Shown here: one piece after another, positions 28,722-46,331 of the stretch
Position numbering within the stretch: the stretch's first letter is position 1
Layout: the number at the start of each line of letters is the position of its first letter
Translations under genes and position numbers: made by a program
The notes under the pieces: generated by a model
Told to the model about the DNA's origin: nothing
Databases searched by the model: none
Seen by the model: the letters and a program-made list of their open reading frames with translations, nothing else
Sequence record: SRR20825006_1228
Direction: 5' to 3' (one strand)
Length of the DNA: 64,000 nt

Positions 28722-28727
28722 GCAAAT

Positions 28728-30624: not shown

Positions 30625-30790
30625 CAAAGTAGCTGCTGAGACAACTTTGCATTCTGCTCGAACATTAAAAAACCAGTTCGCATGCCGTCAATAATGCGCC
30701 GCCAACATGTGCGATTGTATGGTCGTGGTGGACGTCCGGCATCAGGCTGTATCTGATCGACGTCTCGCACCTTTTTGAAGGGAAGCGGGC

Positions 30791-32026
30791 ATGTATCGAA
30801 AATGGATAATCTTTGCGGTTGTCGTTGCCGGCTTTTTTGTCTTGAATGCGAGTACATTTGCTTCTCTTGGGGTCGTTTTGTTCGTCATGGCGGATGACCT
30901 CGGTTGGTCTTACACGTCCGCTGGTTTGAGTTTCACGATTCTGGGGTTGGCCGTGGGTTTGACCAGCTTCCTGCCAGCCATCCTGTTGCAGCGGATCGGC
31001 GCGCGCCTGACTTTCTGTTTCGGGTTTTTCTGCGTCGCCTTGGGTTTTGGGCTGGCCAGCGCCAGCCAGGGGCTTGGCATGTTCTTCGCGGCAATGTGCC
31101 TTGCGGGTGCCGGATTCTCTCTGGCCGGGAACGTCACGGCCGTCTGGCTGATCGGTGAATGGTTTCCGGAGCATACTGGCCGCATGATTGGTCTCTATCT
31201 CATGCTCGGAGGAATTGGAGACATTATGGGTCCCAGCCTCAGCCACTACATGATGGAATGGACAAATTGGCGTTTCAATTGGATGCTGCTGGCTGTCATC
31301 TGCGGCGTTCTCATCCTTGTTGGTGGAGCATTCATCACAGAGCGCCGAGACGTATCCGGAGGCGAGGCGAGGACTGACAACTCGCGCGGGCCCGACGATG
31401 CAAAGGAAGTCGACGGGGCTATTCCATCCTGGAGAGTGGCTATCGGACGGCCTCTGTTTCTGATCATAGCGGCCGCCATCACGTTCAATCTCGCCTGCGT
31501 TACGACGGTGCATTCCATTGCTGTGAGCCACTTGAAGCTTCTTGGCCTGTCTCCAGTTGTCGGGGCCTTGGGGCTCAGCTTCATGGCGTTCGTATCGCTC
31601 GCGTTCAAAGGACTGGCGGGTCCGCTCTGTGAGCGGTTCTCGTCCCGCCACATGTTGGCATTGAGTATGGCGCTGCAGGCTGTCGGGGTCGTCATGTTTG
31701 CTGTCGCGACCAACCCGGCCCTTGTTCTGGTGTCATCACTAATGTTTGGTGCTGGCTGGGGTATCACTGTTGTCGCAACCATGGTTCTGCTTGTGGACTG
31801 CTTTGGGCGGGTAATTGGTGCACAATTGCTAGGCGCGGCTCACCAGATTTCGTCTATTGCTGCCTTTGGCCCGTTGGCAGCTGGAATGGCAGCTGACAAA
31901 ATCGGATCGTTCGCGCCCGTCTTCTTTGCGTTCGCGGTGGCCCTTGGTGTGCTGGCTTTGATTATACAGGTTCTTCGCGACCCTGGAATGTTGAAGCCTT
32001 CTCAGGCGTTCACTCGACCGGTTTAG
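30791..32026 (+). CDS. MFS transporter
   Basis: 12-TM pattern. ASTFASLGVVLFVMADDLGWS resembles the N-terminus of 14010..15356. Confidence 0.88.
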   Translation: MYRKWIIFAVVVAGFFVLNASTFASLGVVLFVMADDLGWSYTSAGLSFTILGLAVGLTSFLPAILLQRIGARLTFCFGFFCVALGFGLASASQGLGMFFAAMCLAGAGFSLAGNVTAVWLIGEWFPEHTGRMIGLYLMLGGIGDIMGPSLSHYMMEWTNWRFNWMLLAVICGVLILVGGAFITERRDVSGGEARTDNSRGPDDAKEVDGAIPSWRVAIGRPLFLIIAAAITFNLACVTTVHSIAVSHLKLLGLSPVVGALGLSFMAFVSLAFKGLAGPLCERFSSRHMLALSMALQAVGVVMFAVATNPALVLVSSLMFGAGWGITVVATMVLLVDCFGRVIGAQLLGAAHQISSIAAFGPLAAGMAADKIGSFAPVFFAFAVALGVLALIIQVLRDPGMLKPSQAFTRPV

Positions 32027-32151
32027 AATGCGGCAAGAATAACCATTGTTCGATCATTTTGCACGACCTGTCCAGCGAGGTGGTGGGCTGTGTTTGTGGG
32101 TGTAGAGAATAGGTGTTAAGTGCCAATTTTAAAGAGTTTTCAATTATTTTG

Positions 32152-32166
32152 GCGCTGGAAATCAAG
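32152..32166 (+). promoter_or_regulatory. Candidate cluster-regulon box (GCGC-N7-CAAG)
   Basis: GCGCTGGAAATCAAG, 72 nt upstream of the TBDR ATG at 32239. Confidence 0.55.
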
Positions 32167-32238
32167 TCAGACCCAAAACCCGGACATAGCGTAGGGTATC
32201 GCAAATTCTGTGATTTCTGCAGCTTGAGGGATAATGTC

Positions 32239-34536
32239 ATGGGTCGGAACAAAAAAATCATTTTGAAGTATAGCGTCGCATGTGCGGCAATGAGTTTGGC
32301 CCTTATTCAGGGTGGAAGCGCGTTTGCGGACGATGCTGCTGGTGATGACGATTCGGTTCGCAATATGAACCAAATTACCGTTTACGGAGAAAAGCGCGAA
32401 ACTACTCTCCAGGATGCGCCGATCGCATTGAGCGCGATCACGAGTGATATTCTTGACCAGGCTGGCATTACGGACCCCAGCCAATTGAATGGCTATGTGC
32501 CTGGCTTGATGATCACCAAGAGTGGTGGGTCCGAGCGCATCGTGACAATCCGGGGAGTGGGTCAGCAGACGCCAGAAAACTTTGCAACTATTCCGGGCGT
32601 CTCCTTTCACGTAGATGGTGCGTTCCTGCCGAATTCAATCGCGTTGAATATGGGCTTTTTCGACGTTGACCGCATTGAGGTTCTGAGAGGTCCGCAAGGC
32701 ACTGTGTTCGGGCAAAGCTCAACGGGCGGATCAATCAACATTATCACCAAGCAGCCAACCCTTGATGAGTACAAGGGCACCTTCAAGGCAACGCTCGGCG
32801 ACTACAATTACGTTCAAGGGTTTGCGTCTTACAACGTCCCCATAGGTGAAACGGCAGCTATTCGTGGCTCCATTCAGCAAACGTCCCATGATGGCTATGC
32901 GACTGCCACCAGTGTAGATGGCGGATATGAGCTCGATGATGCCGACAATGAGCACTATCGCATCGCGGGGCTTTGGGAGCCGACAGACAAGCTGTCCACG
33001 ACGCTTTCCTATACGCTCTACAATGACAAGCATAATGGTGGTGCCTTGAAGAATCTCGAGGATCCAAACCCCGACATTCGAGAGCTAACACAGGACTTCC
33101 CCGCCAAGTTCAAACTGCGTTCAGAGTTGGCGACGTTGAACGTTGCTTATGAACTGCCGTTCGCGACACTCAAGTCGGTGACAAGCTATCAAGATCTGAC
33201 GCACGACCAGTCATTCGATGCTGATCGGTTGGATATTGCGACATATGGTGGATATGACCATGTTGCGACTTGGGCGACAGATGCCGAGACCTTCATGGAA
33301 GAGTTGACGATTAGCTCACTGCCGGAGGCCCCAATTGACTGGATCGCGGGTGTTTTTTACTCTAACACAGATTCCGCTCAATACGTGGTCGAGTATCGTG
33401 AGTTGGGGGTCACCTCCATTCCGCCTCTACCTGTACTTCCGAAGGATACGCCTCAATCGGCAATCCCGGGTAATCTGGCTTATGAAAACATCTCCTCGGT
33501 GAACCGGGAATCCATCGCCCCATTCTTTCAGGCGACGGTGCCAATCATGGCAAATCTGAACGCCACCATCGGCGCTCGCTACAATGATGATAAATATGAG
33601 GGCGAAGGCGCTTCCTATTACTCAACTCCCACTCAGAGCTCTTTCGATACCCAGACTTGGACTGGGAAAGTCGGGCTGGACTATGATCTTTCCGAAGACT
33701 CCATGCTGTATGCGAGCTGGTCGCGAGGGTACAAACCGGGCGGCCTGAACGGCGGCTCTTCTGGTGCATTGACCGTGTCCACGACCTATGATGAAGAAGT
33801 CGTCGAGGCGATTGAGTTCGGTTCGAAGAATACTTTCCTGGATGGGCGCGCGACACTGAACGCTTCCATCTTCTTCAACCAGTATGAAAACATGCAGTTC
33901 ATTGAAGAGGATCCGATCCCTTATTCGGGTGGCATCGGGAATATTCCTGAAGCGGAGACTTATGGTCTGGAACTCGAAGGTAGCTATCTGGCATTTGATG
34001 ACCAGCTGATGCTTGGCGGTAATATGGCTTTGCTGGACGGCGAAGTTACAGCGGACTACGAAGCGTTGGATCGTCGTTTGGCGGATATCGCTGCTGCGTC
34101 GGCCGAGGCGACCGGTACGATTTATCCTTGGACCTTCGATTGGTTCCTGGCGCGCCAATCCGCTGCGGTGCAAGTCAATGGCAACACGCCACCAAATCTG
34201 GCTGACTTGACGTATAATCTGTATGCCGCTTGGTTCCAGCCGATTGGCGATCATGGAGAGCTCACGTCTCGGATCGAGAATGTGTATGTGGGTGAATACG
34301 AAGCTCGTATCTTTAATACGGACGGAGCCGATGATGTATCTTCCTACAGCCTCTGGAATGCCTATTTCCAATACAAGCCGAATGAGGGTCCGTGGTACGT
34401 TTCTGCTTCTGTGACAAACATCGCGGATGAAGAAGGGGTGTCTGGCCGGTTTGTGGATCCATACTCCAGCGGAACGGTTAGTAATGAGTATGTGCCACCG
34501 CGCCAGCTGCTCGTTACGTTTGGCTTCGAATTCTGA
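32239..34536 (+). CDS. TonB-dependent receptor
   Basis: Signal peptide, TonB-box-like QITVYGEKR, plug motif RIEVLRGPQGTVFG, GYKPGG and C-terminal F. Confidence 0.95.
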   Translation: MGRNKKIILKYSVACAAMSLALIQGGSAFADDAAGDDDSVRNMNQITVYGEKRETTLQDAPIALSAITSDILDQAGITDPSQLNGYVPGLMITKSGGSERIVTIRGVGQQTPENFATIPGVSFHVDGAFLPNSIALNMGFFDVDRIEVLRGPQGTVFGQSSTGGSINIITKQPTLDEYKGTFKATLGDYNYVQGFASYNVPIGETAAIRGSIQQTSHDGYATATSVDGGYELDDADNEHYRIAGLWEPTDKLSTTLSYTLYNDKHNGGALKNLEDPNPDIRELTQDFPAKFKLRSELATLNVAYELPFATLKSVTSYQDLTHDQSFDADRLDIATYGGYDHVATWATDAETFMEELTISSLPEAPIDWIAGVFYSNTDSAQYVVEYRELGVTSIPPLPVLPKDTPQSAIPGNLAYENISSVNRESIAPFFQATVPIMANLNATIGARYNDDKYEGEGASYYSTPTQSSFDTQTWTGKVGLDYDLSEDSMLYASWSRGYKPGGLNGGSSGALTVSTTYDEEVVEAIEFGSKNTFLDGRATLNASIFFNQYENMQFIEEDPIPYSGGIGNIPEAETYGLELEGSYLAFDDQLMLGGNMALLDGEVTADYEALDRRLADIAAASAEATGTIYPWTFDWFLARQSAAVQVNGNTPPNLADLTYNLYAAWFQPIGDHGELTSRIENVYVGEYEARIFNTDGADDVSSYSLWNAYFQYKPNEGPWYVSASVTNIADEEGVSGRFVDPYSSGTVSNEYVPPRQLLVTFGFEF

Positions 34537-34574
34537 TCCAGACACTGTGCTAATCGAAACGAAAGGTAAATGAC

Positions 34575-35456
34575 GTGTCAGACTTTGACGGTGACAAGGA
34601 CTATAGCAGTTTTACGGCCAAACGGGTGACACCCTATCTTGGCGCAGAACTTGAGGGCATAGACTTGACGAAGCCCTTGTCACCGATTCAGGCTGATGAA
34701 CTACGCGATGCGCTGGCCCGGTTTCAGGTGATATTTTTCCGGGACCAGCCCATCAGCCATGATGCCCATAAGGATCTGGGGCGGCTGTTTGGGCCGTTGG
34801 CTATCCATTCGGCGGTTGCGGGGATTGATGGGCACCCGGAGATCGTCGCCATTCATGCGGATGCGGATTCCAAATATGTTGCCGGCGAAGGGTGGCATTC
34901 TGACCTGAGCGCTGATGAGGCGCCGCCGCTGGGAAGCATTCTCTACTTGCATACGATCCCGGAAACGGGCGGAGACACAATGTTCTCCAGCATGTACAAG
35001 GCCTATGATGCGCTGTCTGATCGGATGAAGGCTTATCTCGAAGGGCTTGAAGCGGTACATGATGCCAATCCGGTTTATCATGCTCTGTTCAAGGACTATG
35101 ATAAGAGGTACCCGGTTGCGACGCATCCGGTTATCCGCACCCACCCTGTCACCGGAAAGAAGTGTATTTTCGTCAATTCGTCTTACACGACCCGGATCGA
35201 GGGAATTCCTTCAGAGGAAAGTGATGCGCTTCTCAAGTTTCTGTTTGACCATGTCAAGAACCCGAACTTTCAGGTGCGGTTTCAGTGGCAACCACACTCG
35301 ATCGCTTTCTGGGACAATCGTGCCGTTCAGCATCTGGCGGTGTGGGATTATTTTCCAGAGGTTCGGTCCGGCTACAGGGTGACAATAGCCGGCGACAAAC
35401 CATTCAGCGGCACACTTCAAAATCGAAAACTGGAGACAGTTGCAGCAACTGTTTGA
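34575..35456 (+). CDS. TauD/TfdA-family Fe(II)/2-oxoglutarate dioxygenase (taurine dioxygenase-like)
   Basis: GAELEGIDL, VIFFRDQ, WHSD, GGDTMF, HPVIRTHP, FWDNRAVQH and RxxxR. Confidence 0.93.
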   Translation: MSDFDGDKDYSSFTAKRVTPYLGAELEGIDLTKPLSPIQADELRDALARFQVIFFRDQPISHDAHKDLGRLFGPLAIHSAVAGIDGHPEIVAIHADADSKYVAGEGWHSDLSADEAPPLGSILYLHTIPETGGDTMFSSMYKAYDALSDRMKAYLEGLEAVHDANPVYHALFKDYDKRYPVATHPVIRTHPVTGKKCIFVNSSYTTRIEGIPSEESDALLKFLFDHVKNPNFQVRFQWQPHSIAFWDNRAVQHLAVWDYFPEVRSGYRVTIAGDKPFSGTLQNRKLETVAATV

Positions 35457-35550
35457 CCTCTGATTCATCGCGGTAGTGCGAGTTAATTGTGACGACCGTT
35501 CAAAACTACCGTGAAGCTGCTCGATGCGTCTCGGTCCACAACACACAGTC

Positions 35551-35589
35551 CAGACCCAGCAGGGGCCAATAGGTTCCCTGCCGGGTCTG
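35551..35589. terminator. GC-rich stem-loop between convergent genes
   Basis: CAGACCC-A-GCAGGG...CCCTGC-C-GGGTCTG. There is no clear U tract. Confidence 0.5.
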
Positions 35590-35619
35590 ATGTGGATTGA
35601 CGTGCGCGAGTCGCACCAA

Positions 35620-36771
35620 CTACGCGCCGACCACTTCTGGAAGAGCTTTGCAGAACCGCTCTACATCTTTGATCTTTCCCATCGAAACTCGCGTCCATTC
35701 AGTATAGTCCATATATTGTCCGCGAACGGATATGAGCTTTGCCGCCATGGCCTTCTGAACATCATTCGCTTCTTTACCAGACTTGAAGTAAACGAAATTG
35801 GTCTGGGACGGTAGCCGCTCAAGACCGAGCGTATCGATGGTCATGTTCACCATCTCACGAGCTTCAACAATTTTCTGTTTCGAATAGGCTATGAACGCCT
35901 CATCCTGGTAGGCGCCTATAGCGGCAGCATAAGAAGTGCAGGGAGACCATGACATGACGACACCTCTGATTTTCTCCGCCGTTTCAGCGGATGAAATTGA
36001 ATAGCCCATGCGCAATCCAGCCATACCAAAAATCTTCGAGAAGGTGCGTGTCACAATGACATCGTGGCCTTCATCGATCAGCCCGATACAGGTATTGCCT
36101 TCGGGATCATCGGCGAGCTCCATGTAGGCTTCGTCGACCAGAACCGTCGTTTTTGCAGCCATGCGCTTCACCGCCGATTTCAGCGTTGCCGCGTCTGACA
36201 CCATACCCGTAGGATTGTTGGGATTACACAGCTGGACGATGCCTGTTTCTGATGTGACTTTCGCCTCGATCGCCGCGAGGTCCACGCTCATATCGGCTGC
36301 AAGTGGCACCCGATCGATGCTTCCGACGCCTTGGTTGACGGCATACAGAGCAGTCGTATCCCAGAAAAGACGGGGGGCGACAATTGGGCCCGTCTTGCCG
36401 TAGATCATCGCGATAGCGCTGAGCACCTCGCCGGATCCGGTGGTCAGAACGACTTGCTCAGGTGTAACACCATTCTTGTCCGCGATGAGCTGTGCAAGCA
36501 TCTGAATGGCCTCAGGCGAGGTGTAGTACGCGCCCTTATTGGCTGCGTACTCTACCATCTTCAATGCAGCTTTGGAGGGGCCGTATGGGTTCTCGTTGCG
36601 GGAGAGCAGTGCCACTCCTTCCTTGGGCCCCAGCAGATACGGGTCCGGCGTAGCAGTCGCGGGAAAGGCGCCTTGTGTTTCGGCTGCTGTGGTTGCGCAA
36701 CCGGCAAGGCTCGCCGTGGCGAGTCCGCCCGCCATCAAGAACCGTCTCGATACGTCAAATGCCATTTTCAT
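35620..36771 (-). CDS. Class I/II PLP aminotransferase (HisC-like) with Tat/lipoprotein signal
   Basis: SRRFL twin-arginine motif, LAGC lipobox, NENPYGPS, CNPNNPTG, DEAY and RTFSKIFGMAGLRMG. Confidence 0.9.
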   Translation of the reverse strand: MKMAFDVSRRFLMAGGLATASLAGCATTAAETQGAFPATATPDPYLLGPKEGVALLSRNENPYGPSKAALKMVEYAANKGAYYTSPEAIQMLAQLIADKNGVTPEQVVLTTGSGEVLSAIAMIYGKTGPIVAPRLFWDTTALYAVNQGVGSIDRVPLAADMSVDLAAIEAKVTSETGIVQLCNPNNPTGMVSDAATLKSAVKRMAAKTTVLVDEAYMELADDPEGNTCIGLIDEGHDVIVTRTFSKIFGMAGLRMGYSISSAETAEKIRGVVMSWSPCTSYAAAIGAYQDEAFIAYSKQKIVEAREMVNMTIDTLGLERLPSQTNFVYFKSGKEANDVQKAMAAKLISVRGQYMDYTEWTRVSMGKIKDVERFCKALPEVVGA

Positions 36772-36825
36772 TTCCTTCCTGATTTCACTTTTAACTCAAC
36801 GCGTTTGCTCTTGCTTCACCCCGTA

Positions 36826-37662
36826 TCAGGTGAACGAATTCCATAGAACGATTGCGGATGTTGCAACCAAGTATACTCCGAACACTCGTTTCAAGGCAGG
36901 CCCGTTCAATGCGTGGGCAGCCCGCGCGCCGAGTGGCGCGGTAATGAACGACATTGCCGTGATGGCAACGACAGCGAGAACATTCACATATCCAAAAGAG
37001 CCAACGGGTAGCTGGCTGGCGCCTAACCCCAGAAGCGCAAATCCGATTGTGCCGGGGACTGCGATGATTACGCCAAACCCGGAGGCCGTCCCGACAGCCT
37101 GGTGTATGGGACGACCACACATGGTCATGGTAAGTATGGCAATCGTTCCGCCACCGATGCCTAACAGAGCCGAGAAACCTCCGAGAAAGGAAGCAAGCCC
37201 GGCTAAAGCTACCCCTTTGGGCATTTCGTTAGACAGTTTTACATCCTTCAGAACGGGCATGATGAAGTGCAGGCCCATCAGAAAAACACCAATCGAGAAA
37301 ACCCACTTCAAAGATCTGCCATCCATGAATTGGGCCAGAATGATGCCACCGATGACGCCGACGAGCAGCCAGGGTGCCCAGTCCTTTATTATTTGAAGGT
37401 CGACGGCACCCCGTTTGTTGTGGGCGTGAACCGATCGGGATGAGGTAACAATAATGGTGGCCAGCGATGTGCCGATGGCCACATGTGTCAGCACTTCGCC
37501 ATCTACGCCGAAGAAGCTGAAAACCAGAAGCAAAGCAGGTACCACGACGAACCCGCCGCCAATTCCAAATAATCCTGCAACAAAGCCGGCGATCAAACCG
37601 GCGATCATCAAAACACTGATTAGCTGTGCCAATTGCAATGGATCGTATTCAAGTCCCAGCAT
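36826..37662 (-). CDS. TSUP (TauE/SafE sulfite exporter family) permease
   Basis: Duplicated GLFGIGGG and LLGIGGG motifs, and AIGTSL. Start placed at MLGLEY. Confidence 0.92.
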   Translation of the reverse strand: MLGLEYDPLQLAQLISVLMIAGLIAGFVAGLFGIGGGFVVVPALLLVFSFFGVDGEVLTHVAIGTSLATIIVTSSRSVHAHNKRGAVDLQIIKDWAPWLLVGVIGGIILAQFMDGRSLKWVFSIGVFLMGLHFIMPVLKDVKLSNEMPKGVALAGLASFLGGFSALLGIGGGTIAILTMTMCGRPIHQAVGTASGFGVIIAVPGTIGFALLGLGASQLPVGSFGYVNVLAVVAITAMSFITAPLGARAAHALNGPALKRVFGVYLVATSAIVLWNSFT

Positions 37663-37709
37663 TAAAGGTCCAGTTCTGAAAAGAATGAGTTTCGATGATG
37701 AAGTAGGTG

Positions 37710-37735
37710 TGGGGGGCGCCCGGGAGCGCTCCCCA
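37710..37735. other. Intergenic stem-loop after TBDR
   Basis: TGGGGGGCGC-CCGGGA-GCGCTCCCCA. Confidence 0.5.
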
Positions 37736-37774
37736 ACTCCAAGTAAACCTGTACGGTGGCTCGGCAGGTAAACA

Positions 37775-40396
37775 TCAGAATGTCGCTGATGCCTTGACGT
37801 AGTAATAGCCACCTTGCCAGTCGACAACCGAGTCAGATCGATAGATCCGTCCACAGCATGTTTCGCCAATCGCCGCGTCGCCCGCATCTGGATAGTTATC
37901 GAATGCGTTTCTTACACCAGCGGACAGGGTAAGGGCATCGTCGACTTCATAGGATGCTTCGAAATCGAACAGGATTTCTCCGTCCCATTCCTGGATATCG
38001 GCGAGGGTTGATGAAGCCGCGTTTTCGTATCCACCATAATAGTTGGCGCGACCGAGGAGGCTGATCGGACCAGCTTGATGGAGTACGGTGAACACGCCCC
38101 GCCAGTTGGGCGTGCCATTCAGGAAATCGAACTGGCTCTCGTCATTGAAGAGTGCATCCACATCGCTATCGAATTCGGTCTTGTTGTAGTTGACCGACCC
38201 TGTGAAGCTTGTGTTTTGCCCATTCGCCCACGGCATGGTGTATGTTGCCACGATGTCGACGCCAGATGTGGTCGTATCGAATGCATTGGTAAAATAGAAC
38301 ACGCCGCCAATCGATTCAGCACCGGTAACTCCGGCTGCGACAAGTGCAAGATAGTTGTCATACGCTGTCCCTGAAGCCGGATCGCTTGAAACGTCCTGTG
38401 TGGAGATTGCGTTGACTCGATCGGCGAGATCGATCTGGTAGAAGTCGACTGTCAAACTCATGTTCTCGAAGTTCGAGGTCATGCCGAGTGTGTAGTTTGT
38501 GGATGTCTCAGGTTCGAGAGGTGTCGCTCCCAGTGCCTTGGCCACTGGTCCACTGGCCGGGAAAAGACCAGTCGCTACCGGGAAGCCATTGGGCAGTCGG
38601 GTAGAGACGTTAGTGGTACCCTGCTGTCCCGGCGTCGGCGCGCGGAAACCGGTGCCGATCGAACTGCGAAGCGCCAGGATGTCATTGATTTCGTAGCGGC
38701 CGGCAATTTTCCAGACGGTTTCAGCATCAAAGTCTGAATAGCTTTCGTAGCGCAGAGCGCCTTGCAAGAAGAGTTTCTCAGTGACATCCGCACTCAGATC
38801 CGCATAGACCGAATGGGAGTCCCGCGTATAGTCTTCTGAAAAGGCAGGTGAATAACCAGGAAAGCCATTCGATCCTACACCGACGACCTGGTATACGGGA
38901 TCATCCGGATCGGAGCAGTCGAGCGTGGATCCTGCAGCCATGACCGCCACACCGGCCGCAGTCGGAGCCATGGAATCGCAGAAGCCGAACGGGTCTGCAC
39001 CGGCAAACGGACCATCTTCATAAGACGCCTTGTCACCCTCGACCAGTTCATAGGACTCGTCCAGATAACTAAGGCCCATTGCGAACAGGAGCGGGCTCGC
39101 AAGCCCGACTTCGAATTCCTTCGAGAAGTCAGCCTGAATTTGTGCCTCTTCGTTGATCAGGTCTCCAGGACGGAACACGGTTGGCGTGTCGGGGCCCATC
39201 GACGGGTTGATCGTATTTGCCAGCGTATACTCGATTTCGTTATGTCCGTAACGCGCGCTAAGGTCATAATCGAACCCGGCAATGAGGCCTCGCAAGCCAC
39301 CAACGAAGGAATAGTCAGTTACATCACCGAAGAATCGCGGGGTGAAACCACCCGGGAAAATCTCCAGCGGCGAATAAATTGATCCATCTTCAAGTCGCAA
39401 GTCTTCAATCGTGCCGTTACCGGGATAGCGATAGAAGAAGCCGCCATCTGATTTGCTGCTGGAATAGTTGCCGAAGGAATAGAGTTCGGCTGTGTCGTTG
39501 ATCGTGTAGGCGGAGTTGTAAAATAGCCGAACGGCTTCGCTGTTGGGTTGGCCCCAGGGTTGAACGGCGCCGAAGTCACCAAGTGACGCAGACGGGACGC
39601 CTTCGATGAACTCGGGCGTGAGGCTGACCGCGTAACCGGCTGTGGGATCGAAGTCCGGATTGCTCGGGTCGAGACAGAACCAGGACTCACAATACTGTTC
39701 GCTTCGACTGGTCGCGTCCGCCTTGCTGACTTCACCGGAAACGCTGAGGAAACCTTTCCCACCCAGATCGAAGCCGTAATTGCCCGATACCGTGTATTGG
39801 AAGCCATCACCTTCATAATACTGGCCGACATCGACGCTGACCGAACCACCTTCCGAATTGTCTTTGAGCAGGAAGTTGATGACTCCAGCAATAGCATCCG
39901 ACCCGTATTGCGCCGCGGCGCCATCCCGGAGGACTTCGATGCTTTTGAGGGCAGAAGCCGGAATGGTGGCCACGTCCGGGCCTTGCGTTCCAGATCCACC
40001 AATGGTCACGAGTGCGGCGCGATGGCGCCGTTTCGAGTTCACCAGCACAAGCGTCTTGTCTGTTGGCAAGCCACGCATTTCAGCGGGGCGGACAAAAGAA
40101 CTACCATCAGAAATTGGCTGGCGAGTAAGGGAATAGGATGGAATGAGTGTTTTCAGAACATCATTCGTGTCCGTGAACGGCACCGCGCTGAGTTCATCTT
40201 CACTTAGAACATCAATTGGGACAGGCGAGTCCTGGATGGAGCGAGGTTTCCCGCGAGACCCCGTTACCGTGACCGCTTCCTGAACCGAGACATCATCTGT
40301 CTCTCCCTCTTGGGCTTGCGCCGCTGTGATCATGGAAAGGCTGACTGTGGCGAAGGCACACGACAGTAGTTGTGTTCGCAGTTTGGATACTTTCAT
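37775..40396 (-). CDS. TonB-dependent receptor
   Basis: Signal peptide MKVSKLR..AQA, EAVTVTGSR, SIEVLRDGAAAQYGSDAIAGVIN, TGFRAP and C-terminal F. Confidence 0.95.
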   Translation of the reverse strand: MKVSKLRTQLLSCAFATVSLSMITAAQAQEGETDDVSVQEAVTVTGSRGKPRSIQDSPVPIDVLSEDELSAVPFTDTNDVLKTLIPSYSLTRQPISDGSSFVRPAEMRGLPTDKTLVLVNSKRRHRAALVTIGGSGTQGPDVATIPASALKSIEVLRDGAAAQYGSDAIAGVINFLLKDNSEGGSVSVDVGQYYEGDGFQYTVSGNYGFDLGGKGFLSVSGEVSKADATSRSEQYCESWFCLDPSNPDFDPTAGYAVSLTPEFIEGVPSASLGDFGAVQPWGQPNSEAVRLFYNSAYTINDTAELYSFGNYSSSKSDGGFFYRYPGNGTIEDLRLEDGSIYSPLEIFPGGFTPRFFGDVTDYSFVGGLRGLIAGFDYDLSARYGHNEIEYTLANTINPSMGPDTPTVFRPGDLINEEAQIQADFSKEFEVGLASPLLFAMGLSYLDESYELVEGDKASYEDGPFAGADPFGFCDSMAPTAAGVAVMAAGSTLDCSDPDDPVYQVVGVGSNGFPGYSPAFSEDYTRDSHSVYADLSADVTEKLFLQGALRYESYSDFDAETVWKIAGRYEINDILALRSSIGTGFRAPTPGQQGTTNVSTRLPNGFPVATGLFPASGPVAKALGATPLEPETSTNYTLGMTSNFENMSLTVDFYQIDLADRVNAISTQDVSSDPASGTAYDNYLALVAAGVTGAESIGGVFYFTNAFDTTTSGVDIVATYTMPWANGQNTSFTGSVNYNKTEFDSDVDALFNDESQFDFLNGTPNWRGVFTVLHQAGPISLLGRANYYGGYENAASSTLADIQEWDGEILFDFEASYEVDDALTLSAGVRNAFDNYPDAGDAAIGETCCGRIYRSDSVVDWQGGYYYVKASATF

Positions 40397-40479
40397 AGTG
40401 TATGACCCCTCTATTCGCCGCACGACGAATATGATTTGACCGCCTAAGGACGGACTGGAAATCGAATACCAGGGCACAG

Positions 40480-40593
40480 CAAAGGCGCTGGTGATCGAGT
40501 CGGTTTTGAGAGGCCCGCCTTTGGGCCAGGACAGCTATCTGCTGCAGAAGACACCCCCTTGTGCCTTCAGAACTGAAGCCCGTCTTTGGGCTT
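40480..40593 (-). promoter_or_regulatory. ANTAR-type RNA leader: three hexaloop hairpins plus an anti-loop segment
   Basis: Minus strand: AAGCCC-AAAGAC-GGGCTT (40593-40576), GAAGGCAC-AAGGGG-GTGTCTTC (40568-40547) and GGCCC-AAAGGC-GGGCC (40527-40512). All loops are AxxGxx. CGCCTTTG (40487-40480) is complementary to hairpin 3. Confidence 0.82.
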
Positions 40594-40751
40594 GGAAAAA
40601 TCTTTTCAGGTCAAAAAAAAGCTGGGTAGCGGAACGTATTCTGTGATGATGAATGAATACAATTTGCCAGATTTTCACGCACCCTCGCTCAGCTTAGGTG
40701 AAACTTCGAGCAGTGAGGTCGGTTCAAGCCAGCCGGGCTGACATCGTCACA

Positions 40752-41357
40752 TCAAGGCAACAAGTCCGATAGTGAGATCACAGCATCGCAGACGCTTTTC
40801 AGAGATTTTCCTTGGCGCATGGCCGTGGATCGGAGTGACTGATAGGCTTCCTGCTCGCTCATGCCGCGGGTTTGCATCAGAAGGCCTTTTGCGCGTTCCA
40901 CAGTCTTTCGCGCAGCGAGGTTGTCTTTGGATTTCTGCAATTCACCCTGTAGCGTCGACACGAGTTTGTGGCGTTCCACGGCGATTGTGATCAAGGGACC
41001 TATTCGCGAAGCATTAAGTCCATCTACCACGAACGACGTCACCCCACCCCGAATGGCCTGCGGTGCAAGGTTTTCTTCGTCACGCTTCACGAACCAGAGG
41101 ATAGGAAGCTGAGTTGATGCAGCCAGGCGCTCGCTGATCGATATCTGCTCGGTGCCTGCTGACTCTGACGAAAGAATTAGCAGGTCGGCTCTGATTCCTT
41201 CAAGCTCGGTGGCTATGCTTACGAAAGAGAATTCATCAAGCAATCTTATCGTGAAGCTTTCTGGTAAACCCTCCAGTATATTTGCGACGTCGTCCTGTGC
41301 GTTGGCGACAACAAGCACAGACAGTGCTGATAAATCGGCTCGGTCCGGCATGTTCAA
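40752..41357 (-). CDS. ANTAR-domain regulator with pseudo-receiver domain (NasT/AmiR-like)
   Basis: ANTAR motif RKTVERAKGLLM...SEQEAYQSLRSTAM and NasT-like GVTSFVVDG. Confidence 0.93.
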   Translation of the reverse strand: MNMPDRADLSALSVLVVANAQDDVANILEGLPESFTIRLLDEFSFVSIATELEGIRADLLILSSESAGTEQISISERLAASTQLPILWFVKRDEENLAPQAIRGGVTSFVVDGLNASRIGPLITIAVERHKLVSTLQGELQKSKDNLAARKTVERAKGLLMQTRGMSEQEAYQSLRSTAMRQGKSLKSVCDAVISLSDLLP

Positions 41358-41434
41358 TACAGTCTCCCTCCTAATCTCACATGATAGAAAGGGACTGTTT
41401 TTCCAAATCTCTTAGTTTGAATAGCAATCAAAGC

Positions 41435-41450
41435 TGCATTTTCCGCGCCT
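41435..41450 (-). promoter_or_regulatory. Possible sigma54 (-24/-12) promoter
   Basis: Minus strand AGGCGCGGAAAATGCA has GG-N10-GC spacing, about 80 nt upstream of the ANTAR gene. Confidence 0.4.
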
Positions 41451-41671
41451 TTGAGCAAGAAAAGGACAAGTCTGCCTGTTGTTTGATGTCCTCAGGAAGT
41501 CGTTTTGATACAGTGTATCTAAGAAGCATGACCGCACAGGCCCGCGGTGTGATGCGGAAAGTGTCAACTGACTTGCCCTCAAACTCCAGCGCGTGGTCAG
41601 CCAAATCGCAGAGAATGCTGCGCTGTCCCGCGCTTGCGTCGAAGAGTTCGGTTCCCTTTTGAGAAGCTGGC

Positions 41672-42685
41672 TCAGACAAGCCTTTTTCGGAAGCGGGCGG
41701 AGATGAGGTCGAGCACCATTACGGTCAAAAAGATTACCAGCAACATGGTGCCGACGCGATCATACTGGAACATGTCGAACCGGCCTTTCAATTCCTGTCC
41801 GATGCCCCCTGCGCCTACAAGGCCGATCACCGTGGCCATGCGTATGTTTCGATCGAGAATGTAGAGGGAGAGGCCAGTATAGCTCGGCAGAACTTGGGGG
41901 AGGACGGCGATCCTGAGGATGGCGAAATCGCTGGCCCCGGTGGCCTTGAGCGCCTGTTGAGGGCTTTTGTTCGCCGCTTCAATATCTTCGGCGTAGAATT
42001 TTCCCAGAAAGCCTATGCTGTGAAATGACAGGGCCAATATACCTGCAATCGGACCGAACCCAAAAGCAAGCACGAGGAACAGTGCGCTGATCAGTTCGGG
42101 AATTGAGCGAAGCAGGGACACGAGTGATCGTGCCACGCCGTAGATGAGGGGATGGGGCGAGTAATTACTGGCGCATAGCCACGCCAGCGGTAGGCTTACC
42201 AGTATGGCAATCAGGCTGGCCCAGATTGCAATTTCGATTGTTTCAACCATCTTGCCGAGCACGAAGAGAAGATATCCAATTGGCTCGACGAGAAACTGCC
42301 GCTCGGACACTTTCGTGGTCATTTGCAATGTATCCGGATCAAGCTCGGTTGTTTGGACTTCCACCGTCTCCATGTGCGCCAGGAAGGGCAATCTGGATTC
42401 ATCCAGTCCGTCCATCAGGTCAATGGGGCGACGGTCGGAGATGGCTATAGGGAACATGTCGCGGGTCACACTCCCCATTCCCCGGCCGATTTGCGAACTT
42501 TCGCGCAGACCGACCGCCTCAAGCGCAAAGTCTCCAATCTGGCTGGCCATGCGATCCAATTGCATACGCTCTGCGGAGATGCTCGAGGCAATGATTATGA
42601 GGAGCAATACAAGTAGTGATTTCCACCCGAAAGGCTGTTTTAGATGCCAAAAGTGAGGTAGCGAGTCGTGCTCAGCATCCATCAT
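41672..42685 (-). CDS. phnE: Phosphonate/phosphate-ester ABC transporter permease
   Basis: LRSIPEL, GFLGKFYAEDIE, LPQVLP and NIRMATVIGLVGAGGIG. Confidence 0.92.
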   Translation of the reverse strand: MMDAEHDSLPHFWHLKQPFGWKSLLVLLLIIIASSISAERMQLDRMASQIGDFALEAVGLRESSQIGRGMGSVTRDMFPIAISDRRPIDLMDGLDESRLPFLAHMETVEVQTTELDPDTLQMTTKVSERQFLVEPIGYLLFVLGKMVETIEIAIWASLIAILVSLPLAWLCASNYSPHPLIYGVARSLVSLLRSIPELISALFLVLAFGFGPIAGILALSFHSIGFLGKFYAEDIEAANKSPQQALKATGASDFAILRIAVLPQVLPSYTGLSLYILDRNIRMATVIGLVGAGGIGQELKGRFDMFQYDRVGTMLLVIFLTVMVLDLISARFRKRLV

Positions 42686-42686
42686 C

Positions 42687-43475
42687 TCACGCGACCTCCC
42701 TTCGCAGGGTGGGTGAAGTATCGTCGATTTCAAAGATAGCCTGAACTGCGTCGCTAGTAAGAGCAGCTGGTGGTCCATCGAAAACGATAGTGCCATTGTT
42801 GAGACCGATGATCCGGTCCGCATATTCGCGAGCAAGATCGATTTGATGCAGCGAGCAGAGAACAGCTGCATCACGTTCCTGGGCCGCGCTCTTCAGTAGG
42901 TCCATTACATCCGCAGACGATCTGGGATCAAGGCTGGCGACGGGTTCATCGGCGAGAATGAGACTCGGATCACACATCAATGCGCGCGCGATGCCCACGC
43001 GTTGTTTCTGGCCGCCAGACAGTTGGCCAGTACGCCGATTGGCATGATCTTCCGACAAGCCGACACGCGAAAGCAGGGCGCACGCTTTTTCTTGAATCAA
43101 GTGGGGATACAATTGAAGCGCGACGCGCCACCAGGAAAGCGCCGCAATGCTGCCTGACATCACATTTTGCGCTGTCGTCAGTCTGTCGGTCAGGCCAAAA
43201 TCCTGATGCACCATTCCGACGTGACGTCGTTGCTTTTTCGTAAGGCGCACCCCGTGAAGCCGAATGTCTCCGGAGTCTACAGGCGCCAGCCCAACAATAC
43301 ACCTCAGCAAGGTAGACTTTCCTGACCCCGATGACCCAAGCAGAACGCAAAAGCAACCGGGTCTGAGGTCCAGCGAAAAATCAGTGAGGACTCTCGGACC
43401 GTCCTTGTACGACTTGAACACGTTGGAGAGTTTCAGCGCCGGGAGTGTGGACGCAGAAGTGGGTTGGTCTGTCAT
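42687..43475 (-). CDS. phnC: Phosphonate ABC transporter ATP-binding protein
   Basis: [33 protein letters not shown] and SLHQ. Confidence 0.93.
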
Positions 43476-43504
43476 ATTGGAAATTGTGCCGTGGTGAAAA
43501 GATA

Positions 43505-44437
43505 TCAGCCGCGTTGAGCTGCGTCAGCCTTGCGCAGGATCGCGGCCATATAGTCGTCATCCAGAAAAGATGTCGCGGAGATCACGCTATCAAACAGGGT
43601 TTCGTCAACTTCGGTATTGTAGCGATCCACAAGCTTGCCGCCATATCCCCGAATGGCGGCCGGACCAATGCCTTCAGCCTCATGTACATTTGCCATGGCG
43701 CGCTTGAGCTTTGCTTTGATGTCTGCTGGCAATGCGGTGTTCATCGCTATGGGTGGATTCGGGATTTGTTTCGATTTGGTGAGCACCCGGAATGCGCGTG
43801 GATCCAGGCTACCTTGGTTCACCGCACGTTCGAACGACACGAAAGACGCGCCTGCAGCATCTACCAACCCGTTCTTCAATGCCAACAGGCTGTTGGTGTG
43901 GCTTCCCGTGATCCGCAAGGCTGATAGATCCTTTAGCGGATCGAGCCCGTCCTCTCTCAACATGACAAGCGGATACGCAAAGCTGCTGGCGGAGTGACTT
44001 GATCCCAGTGCGAGCGACCCGCCGGAAAGATCGAATACAGAATTTACGTCGGAATCTGCCGCGACAAACAGACCAGCATAATAAGTGGATGAACCATTGC
44101 GTTCTTCGACAGCCAACAATTGCGCGCATCCGCGGTCTCGCGCCTCTATATAGGAGGCCGGACCATACCAGACGACGTCTGTCAGGCCAGCGCACATGGC
44201 TTCTATCACGGCGGCATAGCTTTGCCCGGTACTGACGGTAAAATGCAAGTCACTGGATCGTGTAATGGCATCAAACAATGGCTGAAAATCGGCTTTCGTA
44301 CCGTCTTCCGTACCACCATCTGCGGGGATAAGCATGACGCGAAGAGGCTTTTGCGGGCTGCCGGCTTCCTGAGCGTGCGTTGTAAACGCGAGCATGGCGG
44401 TTAGCAGGAGAAGCGTTATGGTCGACAGAATGCGCAT
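43505..44437 (-). CDS. phnD: Phosphate/phosphite/phosphonate ABC substrate-binding protein
   Basis: Signal peptide, SYAAVIEAM, GPASY, SASS, TGSH and IPNPP. First gene of the phnDCE unit. Confidence 0.88.
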   Translation of the reverse strand: MRILSTITLLLLTAMLAFTTHAQEAGSPQKPLRVMLIPADGGTEDGTKADFQPLFDAITRSSDLHFTVSTGQSYAAVIEAMCAGLTDVVWYGPASYIEARDRGCAQLLAVEERNGSSTYYAGLFVAADSDVNSVFDLSGGSLALGSSHSASSFAYPLVMLREDGLDPLKDLSALRITGSHTNSLLALKNGLVDAAGASFVSFERAVNQGSLDPRAFRVLTKSKQIPNPPIAMNTALPADIKAKLKRAMANVHEAEGIGPAAIRGYGGKLVDRYNTEVDETLFDSVISATSFLDDDYMAAILRKADAAQRG

Positions 44438-44517
44438 ATCCGAGTTCCCAAATTCACCTCGCTGCGTATGAGCTTGGTGCGCCGCAGCATCGATAGTGAG
44501 AGACGTAGCATCGGCTT

Positions 44518-44535
44518 GTGACATTGGTGTTACGC
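44518..44535 (-). promoter_or_regulatory. Pho box-like direct repeat
   Basis: Minus strand GCGTAAC-ACCA-ATGTCAC (7-4-7 layout), about 80 nt upstream of phnD. Confidence 0.45.
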
Positions 44536-44554
44536 AATTCATATATCCTTGATA

Positions 44555-44577
44555 ATAATTGAGTAGAATTCAATTAT
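44555..44577. promoter_or_regulatory. Palindromic operator candidate
   Basis: Perfect inverted repeat ATAATTGA-N7-TCAATTAT between divergent phnD and the RpiR gene. Confidence 0.65.
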
Positions 44578-44604
44578 AAGAGTGTGAAATCCAGAGGGGC
44601 GTGT

Positions 44605-45507
44605 ATGTCTGAGAGCAAATCGAAGCGGAAAGTGGCGCCGAAGCGACGGTCTGATGTGGCGATAGTCGACAATGTCATGACGCGCATTCGAGTGCGGCAT
44701 CCCTCGCTTGGGCCGAGTACGCGTTCGATTGCCGACTTCGTTCTCGCCAATCCCCGACAAGTGGTTGGGATGTCGGTTACCGAGCTGGCTGAAGCGACCG
44801 GTGCCAGTGATGGAAGTGTTATCAATTTCTGCCGCCAATTGGATCTTTCCGGTTTTCAGCAACTGAAGCTCAGCCTCGCCCAGGAAGTGGTGCAACCGGT
44901 TCAGTTCATTCATGAAGATCTGCAGCCGACAGATGACACGCCGACTGTGTGTCGGAAGACCTTCCATGCTGGGGTTCAGGCGCTGAAGGACACGCTCTCG
45001 ATTTTGGACGCCGACGCCGTATCCGCAGCGGTGGATATTATTCGGGCAGCCAAGCGAGTTGAAATTTACGGAATAGGTTCGTCCGCGCCCATTGCGGAAG
45101 ATGCGCAGTATCGCATGCTGCGAATAGGTCTTGATGCGCGGGTGGTGGTGGACAGTCATGTCCAGGCCATCAGCGCGTCGCAAACGGGCCCTGATGTGGC
45201 GGTGCTGACCATTTCGCACTCTGGTGCAACGCATGAGACACTGGCCGCAACCAGATTGGCCAAGGATGCGGGCGCGAAGACGATCATCGTGACCAATTTT
45301 TCGAGTTCGCCGCTGCAGGCCTACGCGGATGTGAAACTTTTCACCATGGCTCGGGAAACCAAGTTCCGGACCGAGGCCATGACCAGCCGGATCGCCCAGC
45401 TATGCGTATTGGATGCGCTGATTGCAGCACTCGCGCTGGCCAATTATGACCGGGCAACCGAAACGCTTCGCAAGACCTTCGATGTGCTGTCGCTAAAGCG
45501 CTTCTAG
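44605..45507 (+). CDS. MurR/RpiR-family transcriptional regulator (HTH + SIS)
   Basis: SVTELAEATGASDGSVINFCRQL.GFQQLK, YGIGSS, ISHSGAT and SRIAQL. Confidence 0.95.
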   Translation: MSESKSKRKVAPKRRSDVAIVDNVMTRIRVRHPSLGPSTRSIADFVLANPRQVVGMSVTELAEATGASDGSVINFCRQLDLSGFQQLKLSLAQEVVQPVQFIHEDLQPTDDTPTVCRKTFHAGVQALKDTLSILDADAVSAAVDIIRAAKRVEIYGIGSSAPIAEDAQYRMLRIGLDARVVVDSHVQAISASQTGPDVAVLTISHSGATHETLAATRLAKDAGAKTIIVTNFSSSPLQAYADVKLFTMARETKFRTEAMTSRIAQLCVLDALIAALALANYDRATETLRKTFDVLSLKRF

Positions 45508-45508
45508 C

Positions 45509-46279
45509 CTATTGCGCTTCTAGCAGTATCTCAAACACATCCGGTGATTTGGCGGAGGTCAGGACCGCCTTGATTCCCAACGCGTTTGCGCCAGCGAGAT
45601 CCGTTGCAGGGTTGTCACCCAGCATGACAACCTGATCCGGTGACAGGTCAAGCGCCTGGCATCCCATCTGGAACAGATGTGGGGAGGGTTTTCCCACGAC
45701 GTCTATTTTTGTTTCATCCAGTTTCACGCATGCTCTGATGGCCGCAAGCAGGGCGCCCGTTTCGGGCTTTATTCCCCCGTCTTTCCCGGGGTGGGTTTGG
45801 TCGGGATTGGCGACGATGAGGTGGCCCCCATTGCTCAAGGAGTTTACCGCGCGTTCCAGGCGGCGATAGGTGAAGCGTACATCGCGGAGCAGTACGACCA
45901 CGTCTGCAGCCTCCTGAGTCAGGTCTATCCCCATTTTCTTGGCGGTTCCGCGCATGTGCGGATCACCAAGCACCATAACCTTTGCGCCAGCAAAACCTGT
46001 TGCGCGTTTGAGCGCCTCCATCCCCGCCAGGATGACTTGGTTGCGTTCCAATTGAATTTCGTTACAGGCCAGTATGTGCAAGAAGTCGTCCGGCGTGCAT
46101 GTGGAGTTGTTCGAGACAATCGCGGTGCGTGTTTGATTGGCGCGCAGGAAGTCTGCGGCCTCGGGCACCAACGTATCGCCGAGTGCGCAGCAGCCATCCC
46201 AGTCTACGAGAAACCCTTTGGCCGACCGGCCCATGTTGGCTATTTCTTCAGATCGCGGCGTAGCGAACGCGTAGGGCAT
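45509..46279 (-). CDS. HAD-IIA (NagD-like) phosphatase
   Basis: DWDG motif I, SNNS, ANPD, GKPSP and GDNPATDLAG. Confidence 0.92.
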   Translation of the reverse strand: MPYAFATPRSEEIANMGRSAKGFLVDWDGCCALGDTLVPEAADFLRANQTRTAIVSNNSTCTPDDFLHILACNEIQLERNQVILAGMEALKRATGFAGAKVMVLGDPHMRGTAKKMGIDLTQEAADVVVLLRDVRFTYRRLERAVNSLSNGGHLIVANPDQTHPGKDGGIKPETGALLAAIRACVKLDETKIDVVGKPSPHLFQMGCQALDLSPDQVVMLGDNPATDLAGANALGIKAVLTSAKSPDVFEILLEAQ

Positions 46280-46300
46280 ATTCCACTCCGATGAAGGACA

Positions 46301-46331
46301 ATTTGTTATTGAGAAATGCTCAATTACAAAT
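46301..46331. promoter_or_regulatory. Palindromic operator candidate (second copy)
   Basis: ATTTGTTATTGA-N7-TCAATTACAAAT (one mismatch) between the divergent HAD and TBDR genes. Same ATTGA-N7-TCAAT core as 44555. Confidence 0.65.

Follow-up and report, generated by a model that had tools for sequence, protein, structure and literature searches.

A conserved marine alphaproteobacterial locus combining an ANTAR regulator and a three-hairpin leader with a TonB-dependent receptor, a TSUP permease, and a predicted exported aminotransferase

A 64,000-nucleotide stretch of DNA from sequence record SRR20825006_1228 (the window in what follows) carries, on the minus strand between positions 35620 and 41357, four co-directional genes for an ANTAR regulator, a TonB-dependent receptor (TBDR), a TSUP/TauE permease, and a HisC-family aminotransferase dependent on pyridoxal phosphate (PLP). 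An earlier, sequence-only reading had noted these four genes in this interval, and our scans for open reading frames (ORFs) and with the Pfam and NCBIfam models bear this out. We propose that the four genes constitute an envelope-spanning amino-group transfer module, in which the TSUP protein moves the 2-oxo acid partner of the aminotransferase; we give this reading about an even chance of being right.

40752-41357, minus strand: ANTAR regulator, 201 amino acids (aa); PF03861 at residues 144-194, E = 2.2e-18, 66.2 bits against a cutoff of 27.3
37775-40396, minus strand: TBDR, 873 aa; plug domain PF07715, E = 2.1e-17, 64 bits
36826-37662, minus strand: TSUP/TauE permease (TauE/SafE, DUF81), 278 aa; PF01925, E = 5.5e-42, 144.5 bits against a cutoff of 32.6
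35620-36771, minus strand: HisC-family PLP aminotransferase, 383 aa; PF00155, E = 1.2e-46, 160 bits

Conservation of the neighborhood, the check suggested along with the sequence-only reading, indicates that the unit is real. A scan of one genome per species, in which the window's nine proteins were placed by tblastn and all ORFs were clustered, yielded 80 related loci, all from Hyphomonadaceae and neighboring marine alphaproteobacteria (Henriciella, Ponticaulis, Maricaulis, Hirschia, and Hyphococcus, among others). The aminotransferase of Hyphomonas sp. L-53-1-40 (locus L001) shares 99% identity with that of the window, and the nearest genome as a whole, with 30% shared words, is G001, on which all genome-wide statements below are based. 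Gene orders were counted in the 74 loci with at least 4.7 kb of sequence upstream of the aminotransferase gene:

ANTAR regulator, TBDR, TSUP permease, aminotransferase: 49 of 74 loci
TSUP permease, aminotransferase, without this TBDR: 12 of 74 loci, several with a different TBDR (family 8) instead
ANTAR regulator, TBDR, aminotransferase, without the TSUP permease: 4 of 74 loci
TBDR, TSUP permease, aminotransferase, no ANTAR gene detected: 2 of 74 loci
Aminotransferase alone: 7 of 74 loci, 5 of them with a divergent second cluster alongside, made up of a 45%-identical aminotransferase paralogue, a TSUP gene, and a TBDR gene

The TSUP gene thus lies directly before the aminotransferase gene in 63 of the 74 loci; one locus, L037, reads ANTAR regulator, TSUP permease, aminotransferase. 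No other family travels with the four genes, the next commonest being present in 10 of the 80 loci, and the flanks scanned in other Hyphomonadaceae are of a housekeeping nature, with lpdA-like, PhzF, integrase/XerD-like, PriA, CBM9/DUF5916, and DUF2817 genes recurring. Five loci from Marinicaulis, Hyphococcus, and metagenome-assembled genomes (L057, L060, L061, L064, and L067) code for two aminotransferase paralogues with Tat signals that are about 45% identical to each other, one being solitary and the other part of a divergent TSUP-aminotransferase-TBDR cluster; neither has a lipobox.

Relatives of the aminotransferase with an N-terminal signal region are found in several orders among 401 sampled genomes of the phylum. 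Upon examination of wider flanks, followed by a search with one such protein, TSUP-aminotransferase pairs or TBDR-TSUP-aminotransferase rows were also recovered in another class, in Alteromonas. The Alteromonas aminotransferase query returned 40 loci, from Alteromonas, one Parahaliea, and others, in 38 of which the TSUP gene directly precedes the aminotransferase gene and in 24 of which the TBDR gene completes the row. The TBDR of Alteromonas is 57 to 62% identical to that of the window, the aminotransferase less so, at 41 to 45%. In 29 of the 40 loci a divergent LysR-type regulator takes the place of the ANTAR gene. The best models for the Alteromonas regulator are NAC (133 bits against a cutoff of 309) and CynR, both far below their cutoffs, and we rejected naming it NAC on this score. 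Pairs of TSUP and aminotransferase genes are further present in Erythrobacter, Porphyrobacter, and Sphingomonas. Since this pair is kept across lineages under either an ANTAR or a LysR regulator, we take the TSUP permease and the aminotransferase to be the core of the system, the TBDR a frequent third member, and the regulator a lineage-specific, swappable component.

One locus from Parahaliea maris (L165) has a longer row, made up of genes for a TBDR, a Tat-signal-bearing flavin amine oxidase, a RidA-family protein that carries a signal peptide, a TSUP permease, and the aminotransferase. This insertion suggests a theme of periplasmic deamination within the same row and favors the module reading. 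Of nine further oxidase-bearing genomes of the order, five also have the oxidase-RidA pair (3374-6115 of L165), which stands alone in L186, L188, L189, L191, and L194; it looks like a periplasmic amine or amino acid oxidase with its own imine deaminase.

The aminotransferase begins with the sequence MKMAFDVSRRFLMAGGLATASLAGC, in which the twin-arginine motif S-R-R-F-L-M is followed by an L-A-G-C lipobox. Both had been noted in the sequence-only reading, and both prove to be conserved: of 79 homologues, 77 have the RR motif and 64 the lipobox cysteine, with cleavage sites of the A-x-A type in those that lack the cysteine. This pattern points to Tat export as a conserved feature of the family and to lipid anchoring as the usual one; hence, we predict that the enzyme is a Tat-exported, usually lipid-anchored lipoprotein. 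A TatC gene is present in G001. The best NCBIfam model for the enzyme is NF006580 (PRK09105), at 235.8 bits against a cutoff of 444, with an alignment that starts at residue 6 and covers the signal region; the G001 orthologue obtains 236.4 bits with the same model. The hisC model TIGR01141 gives 201.3 bits (cutoff, 276.55), and the PtaA model NF051461 gives 183.4 bits (cutoff, 500) over the full length, residues 6-377. A true hisC with 295.9 bits against the cutoff of 276.55 lies elsewhere in G001, and the enzyme under study is therefore not the housekeeping HisC. That it is distinct from hisC, as the sequence-only reading required, is thus upheld by the separate gene, the score below the hisC cutoff, and the Tat signal.

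Invariant in the family alignment are the RR motif, NPNNPT, DEAY, TFSK (with Lys246), R254, R350, and R361, to which a family-specific FWDTT motif is added; we assume that NPNNPT, DEAY, and Lys246 of TFSK have the roles in PLP binding that they have in HisC. An AlphaFold model of the protein (pLDDT, 86.5; residues 1-34 disordered) finds its best fold match in 3ly1, with TM-scores of 0.81/0.89 and a sequence match of E = 2.5e-36, among structures of the HisC type. By sequence and model, then, this is a predicted fold-type I PLP aminotransferase of class I/II. The TBDR has a signal peptide, a plug, and a barrel (PF00593, E = 1.1e-30, 108.3 bits), and its best plug matches are siderophore receptors. 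The TSUP protein is matched along its whole length by PF01925 (profile positions 1-235 of 237), with no equivalog match in NCBIfam and no solved relative found.

The regulator and the TBDR gene are separated by 355 nucleotides (nt), the TBDR and TSUP genes by 112 nt, and the TSUP and aminotransferase genes by 54 nt. For the TBDR we took the ATG at 40396, which stands behind the Shine-Dalgarno sequence AGAGGGG, as the start in an ORF that extends to a GTG at 40477, and for the TSUP protein the ATG at 37662 in an ORF that extends to 37887. The regulator has an alternative start, the ATG at 41351, and 25 of 54 aligned homologues have a methionine at that column. Past the last gene lies a further hairpin:

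35551-35589: GC-rich 14-bp hairpin between the aminotransferase stop codon and a convergent TauD gene

The fold of 35470-35640 reaches -76.4 kcal/mol (z = -4.77), and none of 200 shuffles is equally stable; this hairpin is likely to mark the end of the transcription unit. The spacer between the TBDR and TSUP genes (37663-37774, minus strand) also contains a GC-rich hairpin (GGGGAGCGCUCCCGGGCGCCCC), which lacks a U-run and whose fold is no better than those of shuffles (z = -1.37). It might set the ratio of the receptor to the downstream proteins.

The regulator is built of a degenerate receiver-like N-terminal domain, a coiled coil, and, at the C terminus, the ANTAR domain. With Pfam, PF03861 is the only match, and no match to PF00072 (Response_reg) is obtained. 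Its closest solved relative is Rv1626 (1s8n; E = 4.5e-15), followed by an Enterococcus-type response regulator (6wsh), NasR, and AmiR. The phosphorylated aspartate of Rv1626 aligns with Ser63 of the regulator, and an aspartate occupies that column in 11 of 54 homologues. The protein thus appears, from its sequence, to be of the pseudo-receiver type, with loss of the phospho-acceptor aspartate; we take this pseudo-receiver to resemble that of AmiR.

Between the regulator and the TBDR gene, the sequence-only reading had postulated a leader of the ANTAR type. Such a leader is indeed present, and its motif can be placed exactly upstream of the TBDR gene. The hairpins of this region are, in the direction of transcription, as follows:

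40613-40670, minus strand: imperfect hairpin lying downstream of the regulator gene and trailed by eight consecutive T residues (40620-40613)
40577-40592, minus strand: leader hairpin H1, AGCCC-AAAGAC-GGGCT, hexaloop with A1 and G4
40547-40568, minus strand: leader hairpin H2, core GGCAC-AAGGGG-GTGTC at 40565-40550, extended to an 8-bp stem
40531-40545, minus strand: hairpin between H2 and H3, GCAGC-AGATA-GCTGT, not of the ANTAR type
40512-40527, minus strand: leader hairpin H3, GGCCC-AAAGGC-GGGCC, hexaloop with A1 and G4
40406-40430, minus strand: hairpin ATTCGTC-GTGC-GGCGAAT, directly followed by the TBDR Shine-Dalgarno sequence AGAGGGG, seen in the sequence and in the folds

The leader therefore contains three 5-bp hairpins with AxxGxx hexaloops, one above the usual ANTAR pair. 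The main text of PMC3369931 defines the ANTAR target element by hexaloops whose first and fourth positions are A and G, respectively, and the loops of H1, H2, and H3, all with A1 and G4, agree with that definition as given there. A simple pattern scan, run without a chance control, detects at least two hairpins of this kind in 49 of 54 leaders. When the rule was relaxed, 35 triples emerged, from which 24 loci with clean triples were picked by eye and aligned with the window (alignment A2, 25 sequences). In A2, 91.3% of cells are paired, against 35 to 49% with a slid partner; changes on both sides are seen in 12 of the 17 modeled pairs, and none of 500 shuffles reaches the covariation score. 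Helix 1 is paired in 94.3% of cells, with both-side changes in two of its five pairs; helix 2 has both-side changes in six of seven pairs; and helix 3 is paired in 96% of cells, with both-side changes in four of five.

A covariance model of the three hairpins (R1) finds a single site in the window, at 79.2 bits and E = 5e-17, the next best match having E = 2.3. Given this gap in E values and the changes on both sides of the pairs, the three-hairpin leader stands beyond chance. Over 87 loci, R1 gives 38 matches in 36 loci. Every one of them lies on the gene strand, immediately before a TBDR gene, and 14 fall in 12 loci outside the set from which the model was built; among these 87 loci none of those from Alteromonas or Parahaliea is matched. 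In two loci from metagenome-assembled genomes, L010 (912-1179 and 4079-4177) and L011 (994-1095 and 4079-4177), a copy of the leader stands before each of two tandem TBDR paralogues, which lie upstream of the TSUP-aminotransferase pair. The three-hairpin form occurs in at least 24 loci besides the window, and other loci have two-hairpin forms with a spacing of 24 to 28 or of about 40 nt. In G001, a single ANTAR gene and a single leader of this type (E = 2.7e-15) are found. The next R1 match in that genome, with E = 0.7, lies inside a coding region and was rejected as a second regulon member; R1 is specific for this leader, so that a generic two-hairpin target in G001 could escape detection.

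The H2 hairpin and the one at 40531-40545 are both formed in minimum-free-energy folds, and other loci too have a hairpin in the latter place, at different alignment columns. The counterpart of the 40406-40430 hairpin in L002 is ATTCGCC-TGGG-GGCGAAT, in the same place. A short alternative hairpin, CUUCA-GUUC-UGAAG (40571-40584, minus strand), connects the 3' end of H1 with the 5' extension of H2; its place in L002 is taken by CUUCG-GUUU-CGAAG, which, read by eye, is an apparent compensatory change. A scan of 30000-47000 with Rfam at E values up to 5 gave two chance-level matches, neither of them in the leader.

As to how the leader might act, consensus scans for promoters and terminators found no more sites than in shuffles, and the leader was free of any. 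The 3' arm of H3 in the window, together with the adjoining CUCU, is complementary to the Shine-Dalgarno region of the TBDR gene (-16 kcal/mol), and the fold with this helix (-74.2 kcal/mol) is nearly equal in energy to that with H3 formed (-73.5 kcal/mol). With the two folds so closely balanced, binding of a protein to H3 could free the ribosome-binding site of the TBDR gene. Such anti-Shine-Dalgarno pairing was rejected as a general mechanism: it ranks at or below 0.1 in 4 of 54 leaders, with a median rank of 0.55. Further upstream, RNA contigs from two studies (X1 and X2) run from 41476 and 41426 down to 40629 and 40631, respectively, ending just before the run of eight T residues. The hairpin at 40613-40670, which is absent from the list of the consensus terminator scan, could be the regulator gene's own terminator, for which this is a weak hint.

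Taking these findings together, we propose the following course of events. Binding of the ANTAR protein to the three-hairpin array in the TBDR mRNA's 5' leader would switch on the TBDR, the TSUP permease, and the aminotransferase. In the window the likeliest route would be stabilization of H3, freeing the Shine-Dalgarno sequence, while in other lineages Rho-dependent termination or another fold might be involved. The TBDR would then bring an amino compound into the periplasm, where the aminotransferase, folded with its PLP in the cytoplasm, exported by the Tat system, and usually lipid anchored, would catalyze amino-group exchange with a 2-oxo acid. The TSUP protein would carry the small anionic partner, either the 2-oxo acid acceptor or the oxo product, across the inner membrane. 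The net effect would be that amino nitrogen, and perhaps the carbon skeleton, is harvested from a compound that is itself kept out of the cytoplasm.

The module reading is based on the fixed pairing of exported aminotransferase and permease, the frequent TBDR, regulators of a nitrogen type, the Parahaliea operon, and two precedents from the literature. One of these is KbuT, a TSUP protein of Neisseria meningitidis that, according to PMC12671195, is required for the oxidation of alpha-ketobutyrate; the other is PtaA, for which PMC6206403 states that the way in which PLP is regenerated in the periplasm is not known. The main text of PMC3369931 describes ANTAR targets as mostly genes of nitrogen metabolism, and a nitrogen-scavenging role is plausible. 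More specifically, we put forward, as a tentative elaboration, a system for extracytoplasmic nitrogen feeding, with import through the TBDR, a lipid-anchored aminotransferase, a TSUP permease that cycles a 2-oxo acid, entry of the nitrogen as an ordinary amino acid, and an orphan pseudo-receiver ANTAR protein that, with no intrinsic terminator involved, frees the ribosome-binding site in the window.

Several results weigh against the module reading or parts of it. With respect to the gene set, the 12 loci with the TSUP-aminotransferase pair and without this TBDR, and the four without the TSUP gene, lack a component to which the proposal assigns a role. No clue to the substrate is found among the neighbors in Hyphomonadaceae; the NCBIfam matches of the TBDR are all far below their cutoffs and point to no substrate class, and among solved structures it is only the plug of the receptor that is matched. 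True members of PRK09105 were found in 7 of the 401 sampled genomes and in the Caulobacter vibrioides control, mostly amid unrelated genes; their neighbors are SMC, UbiA, COX3, and QueC, with no TBDR/TSUP row, the exceptions being L122 and L123, in which a TBDR gene is nearby, in L123 along with a TSUP gene. In Alteromonas the regulator is LysR instead of ANTAR, so that the tie to nitrogen comes from the habits of these regulator families and not from the locus. None of the Logan contigs from RNA libraries bridges a gene junction, and they are uninformative on expression and co-transcription: most of the TBDR, TSUP, and aminotransferase genes are without contig cover in the X1-X3 libraries, and the contig pieces from X4, with 19 and 36 differing positions, derive from a relative.

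The same holds for the regulatory part of the proposal. No sensor gene adjoins the regulator, the upstream genes varying among loci (no search was made for a partner encoded at a distance). Downstream of the leader hairpins in the window, no stem with a trailing U-run is found, and over 54 leaders a terminator search gave weak, scattered downstream candidates, none of them recurrent, the candidates lying mostly upstream of H1, after the regulator gene; classical intrinsic antitermination is hence not supported. The pairing of the H3 arm with the Shine-Dalgarno region is confined to close kin of the window. Finally, the rows of A2 were selected for visible hairpins, which inflates the percentage of paired cells; the compensatory changes in that alignment are independent of the choice of rows.

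The composition of the window itself brings to mind scavenging of sulfur or phosphorus. Here, the HisC-type pocket would bind compounds resembling taurine, cysteate, or aminoethylphosphonate, an oxo product would be formed in the periplasm, and the TSUP protein would either import this product or export sulfite, as is thought for TauE, SafE, and CuyZ. TSUP family membership fits this, as does the apparent invariance in the aminotransferase family of R350 and R361, which we take, by assumption and not by a computed correspondence, to be the phosphate-binding arginines of Escherichia coli HisC; the window, moreover, is rich in relevant genes, with two of the TauD family, a luciferase-like monooxygenase, PhnCDE, and PhoD. 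Such neighbors, however, stand beside the module in only 1 of the 80 loci, small anions normally need no TBDR, and ANTAR and NAC-like regulators favor nitrogen over sulfur or phosphorus. The link to aminosulfonates thus appears to come from the TSUP family name and from TauD/Phn neighbors, the latter kept in L001 alone among the 80 loci; TSUP members also act on plain organic acids, as PMC12671195 reports. We consider this reading unlikely. A quite unlikely one, in our view, is that the system tailors or recycles a secreted metabolite in the way of PtaA: the TBDR would take up a metallophore, perhaps metal loaded, or a large secreted metabolite, and the periplasmic aminotransferase would convert its amino acid side group, as PtaA does with the glutamate of pyoverdine. 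According to PMC6206403, PtaA is the only characterized periplasmic, Tat-exported, HisC-like transaminase and is said to be present in nonproducers. The PtaA model covers residues 6-377 of the window enzyme, and siderophore receptors are the best plug matches of the TBDR. Yet the score is 183.4 bits where the PtaA cutoff is 500, no biosynthetic, reductase, or iron transport gene recurs nearby, and control is by an ANTAR or LysR protein rather than by an iron regulator (a Fur site was not looked for). The 873-aa size of the TBDR is, we assume, that of a nutrient-type rather than a siderophore-type receptor.

It is also conceivable, if improbable, that the PLP enzyme is not a transaminase but a decarboxylase or lyase that shares the fold, in the manner of the threonine-phosphate decarboxylase CobD, and would release an amine or another product in the periplasm. 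The CobD model matches the enzyme with E = 3.1e-44, and CobD structures are among the fold matches of the predicted model, at a TM-score of about 0.75; nevertheless, the HisC, PRK09105, and PtaA models all outscore CobD, and the nearest structures are HisC-type transaminases. Lastly, the public annotation of the enzyme as a histidinol-phosphate transaminase would be in keeping with there being no functional unit at all, merely a HisC paralogue that by chance sits next to genes for transport, the spacer hairpins being fortuitous as well. Against this stand the conserved gene order (49 of 74 loci, two classes), the conserved Tat motif, the separate true hisC, and the R1 match at E = 5e-17 with its compensatory changes, and we hold it to be very improbable.

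On either side, the window has further genes related to nutrient uptake. Converging on the aminotransferase gene, 32113-35456 (plus strand) codes for a second TBDR of 807 aa, followed after 38 nt by a TauD-family dioxygenase that reaches 274 bits against the taurine dioxygenase cutoff of 313. The two look like a TBDR-coupled pair for scavenging sulfonates or sulfate esters. Directly upstream of the ANTAR gene, 41672-44542 (minus strand) codes for a PhnD/PhnC/PhnE-like ABC importer. The PhnC and PhnE ORFs as listed overlap by 188 nt, and the 400-aa PhnE ORF matches its model from residue 167 only, so that its start is probably further in or it has an extra N-terminal part. The PhnD-like protein has a signal peptide and is a neighbor of the module in only 1 of the 80 loci. 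In all, PhnCDE, TauD, and the second TBDR stand beside the module in L001 only. Farther out, 27253-30624 and 45509-50819 are dense in genes for nutrient scavenging; besides those below, an isochorismatase-family gene and a HAD hydrolase gene are found in these regions.

27253-28344: TauD-family gene
28828-29946: luciferase-like monooxygenase
46476-49160: third TBDR-like gene, plug match only
49212-50819: PhoD phosphatase

Periplasmic PLP enzymes are rare. Were the module reading true, the TSUP permease would be the missing supply of acceptor for such enzymes, and a permease gene fixed beside an exported aminotransferase in many marine bacteria would offer a concrete answer to how the cofactor is recycled in the periplasm. 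Being widespread in marine Hyphomonadaceae and Alteromonas, the module could be a real route for dissolved organic nitrogen. With regard to RNA-based regulation, a TonB-dependent uptake operon would be a new class of ANTAR target, with a three-hairpin form and with the classical terminator missing, and the presence of one regulator and one target in G001 makes this a clean system for studying signal sensing by a pseudo-receiver ANTAR protein.

Among known systems, the closest parallel to the aminotransferase is PtaA, which acts in the tailoring of pyoverdine in Pseudomonas. Both are HisC-family PLP transaminases with a twin-arginine signal; PtaA is exported folded with its cofactor and is periplasmic, as we propose for the enzyme of the window. 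The two would share the problem of recycling the pyridoxamine form in the periplasm, which PMC6206403 raises for PtaA. In contrast to PtaA, the family described here is made up mostly of predicted lipoproteins, and its genes share their locus with those for a TBDR and a TSUP permease, all assigned to a dedicated regulator; pyoverdine genes are absent. A second parallel is offered by the Tat-signal aminotransferases of NF006580 (PRK09105), such as that of C. vibrioides; this is the best model and includes the signal region, but the score of 235.8 bits falls below the cutoff of 444.

Like AmiR, NasT/NasR, EutV, and Rv1626 (PdtaR), the regulator has its ANTAR domain at the C terminus, behind a coiled coil and a receiver-like domain. 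It differs from these systems in having three target hairpins instead of two, in that no overlapping intrinsic terminator was found in its leaders, and in the absence of an adjacent sensor of the AmiC, NasS, or EutW type; unlike the response regulators EutV and Rv1626, it appears to lack the phospho-acceptor aspartate. The TSUP permease resembles TauE, SafE, CuyZ, and KbuT of N. meningitidis in its PF01925 domain and in the location of its gene beside that of an enzyme producing or consuming a small organic anion, whereas no characterized TSUP member is paired with a periplasmic enzyme. The carbohydrate utilization (CUT) loci of Xanthomonas and Caulobacter and the polysaccharide utilization loci (PULs) of Bacteroidota combine a TBDR, a periplasmic enzyme, an inner-membrane transporter, and a dedicated regulator. 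The locus described here differs from both in having a PLP transaminase in place of a glycoside hydrolase and a regulator predicted to act on RNA. Our literature searches turned up no report of a TBDR operon under ANTAR control, nor of a TBDR-TSUP-aminotransferase cluster. Neither TonB nor aminotransferases are mentioned in the main text of PMC3369931 or in that of the 2025 review PMC12591593, and neither text names a TBDR operon as an ANTAR target, although the supplements of these papers may list such targets. The view of the sequence-only reading that the system is undescribed thus agrees with what is in print as far as we found it. What is new is the combination of genes, the leader with three hairpins and no terminator, and the orphan regulator with its pseudo-receiver, while each part is of a known kind.

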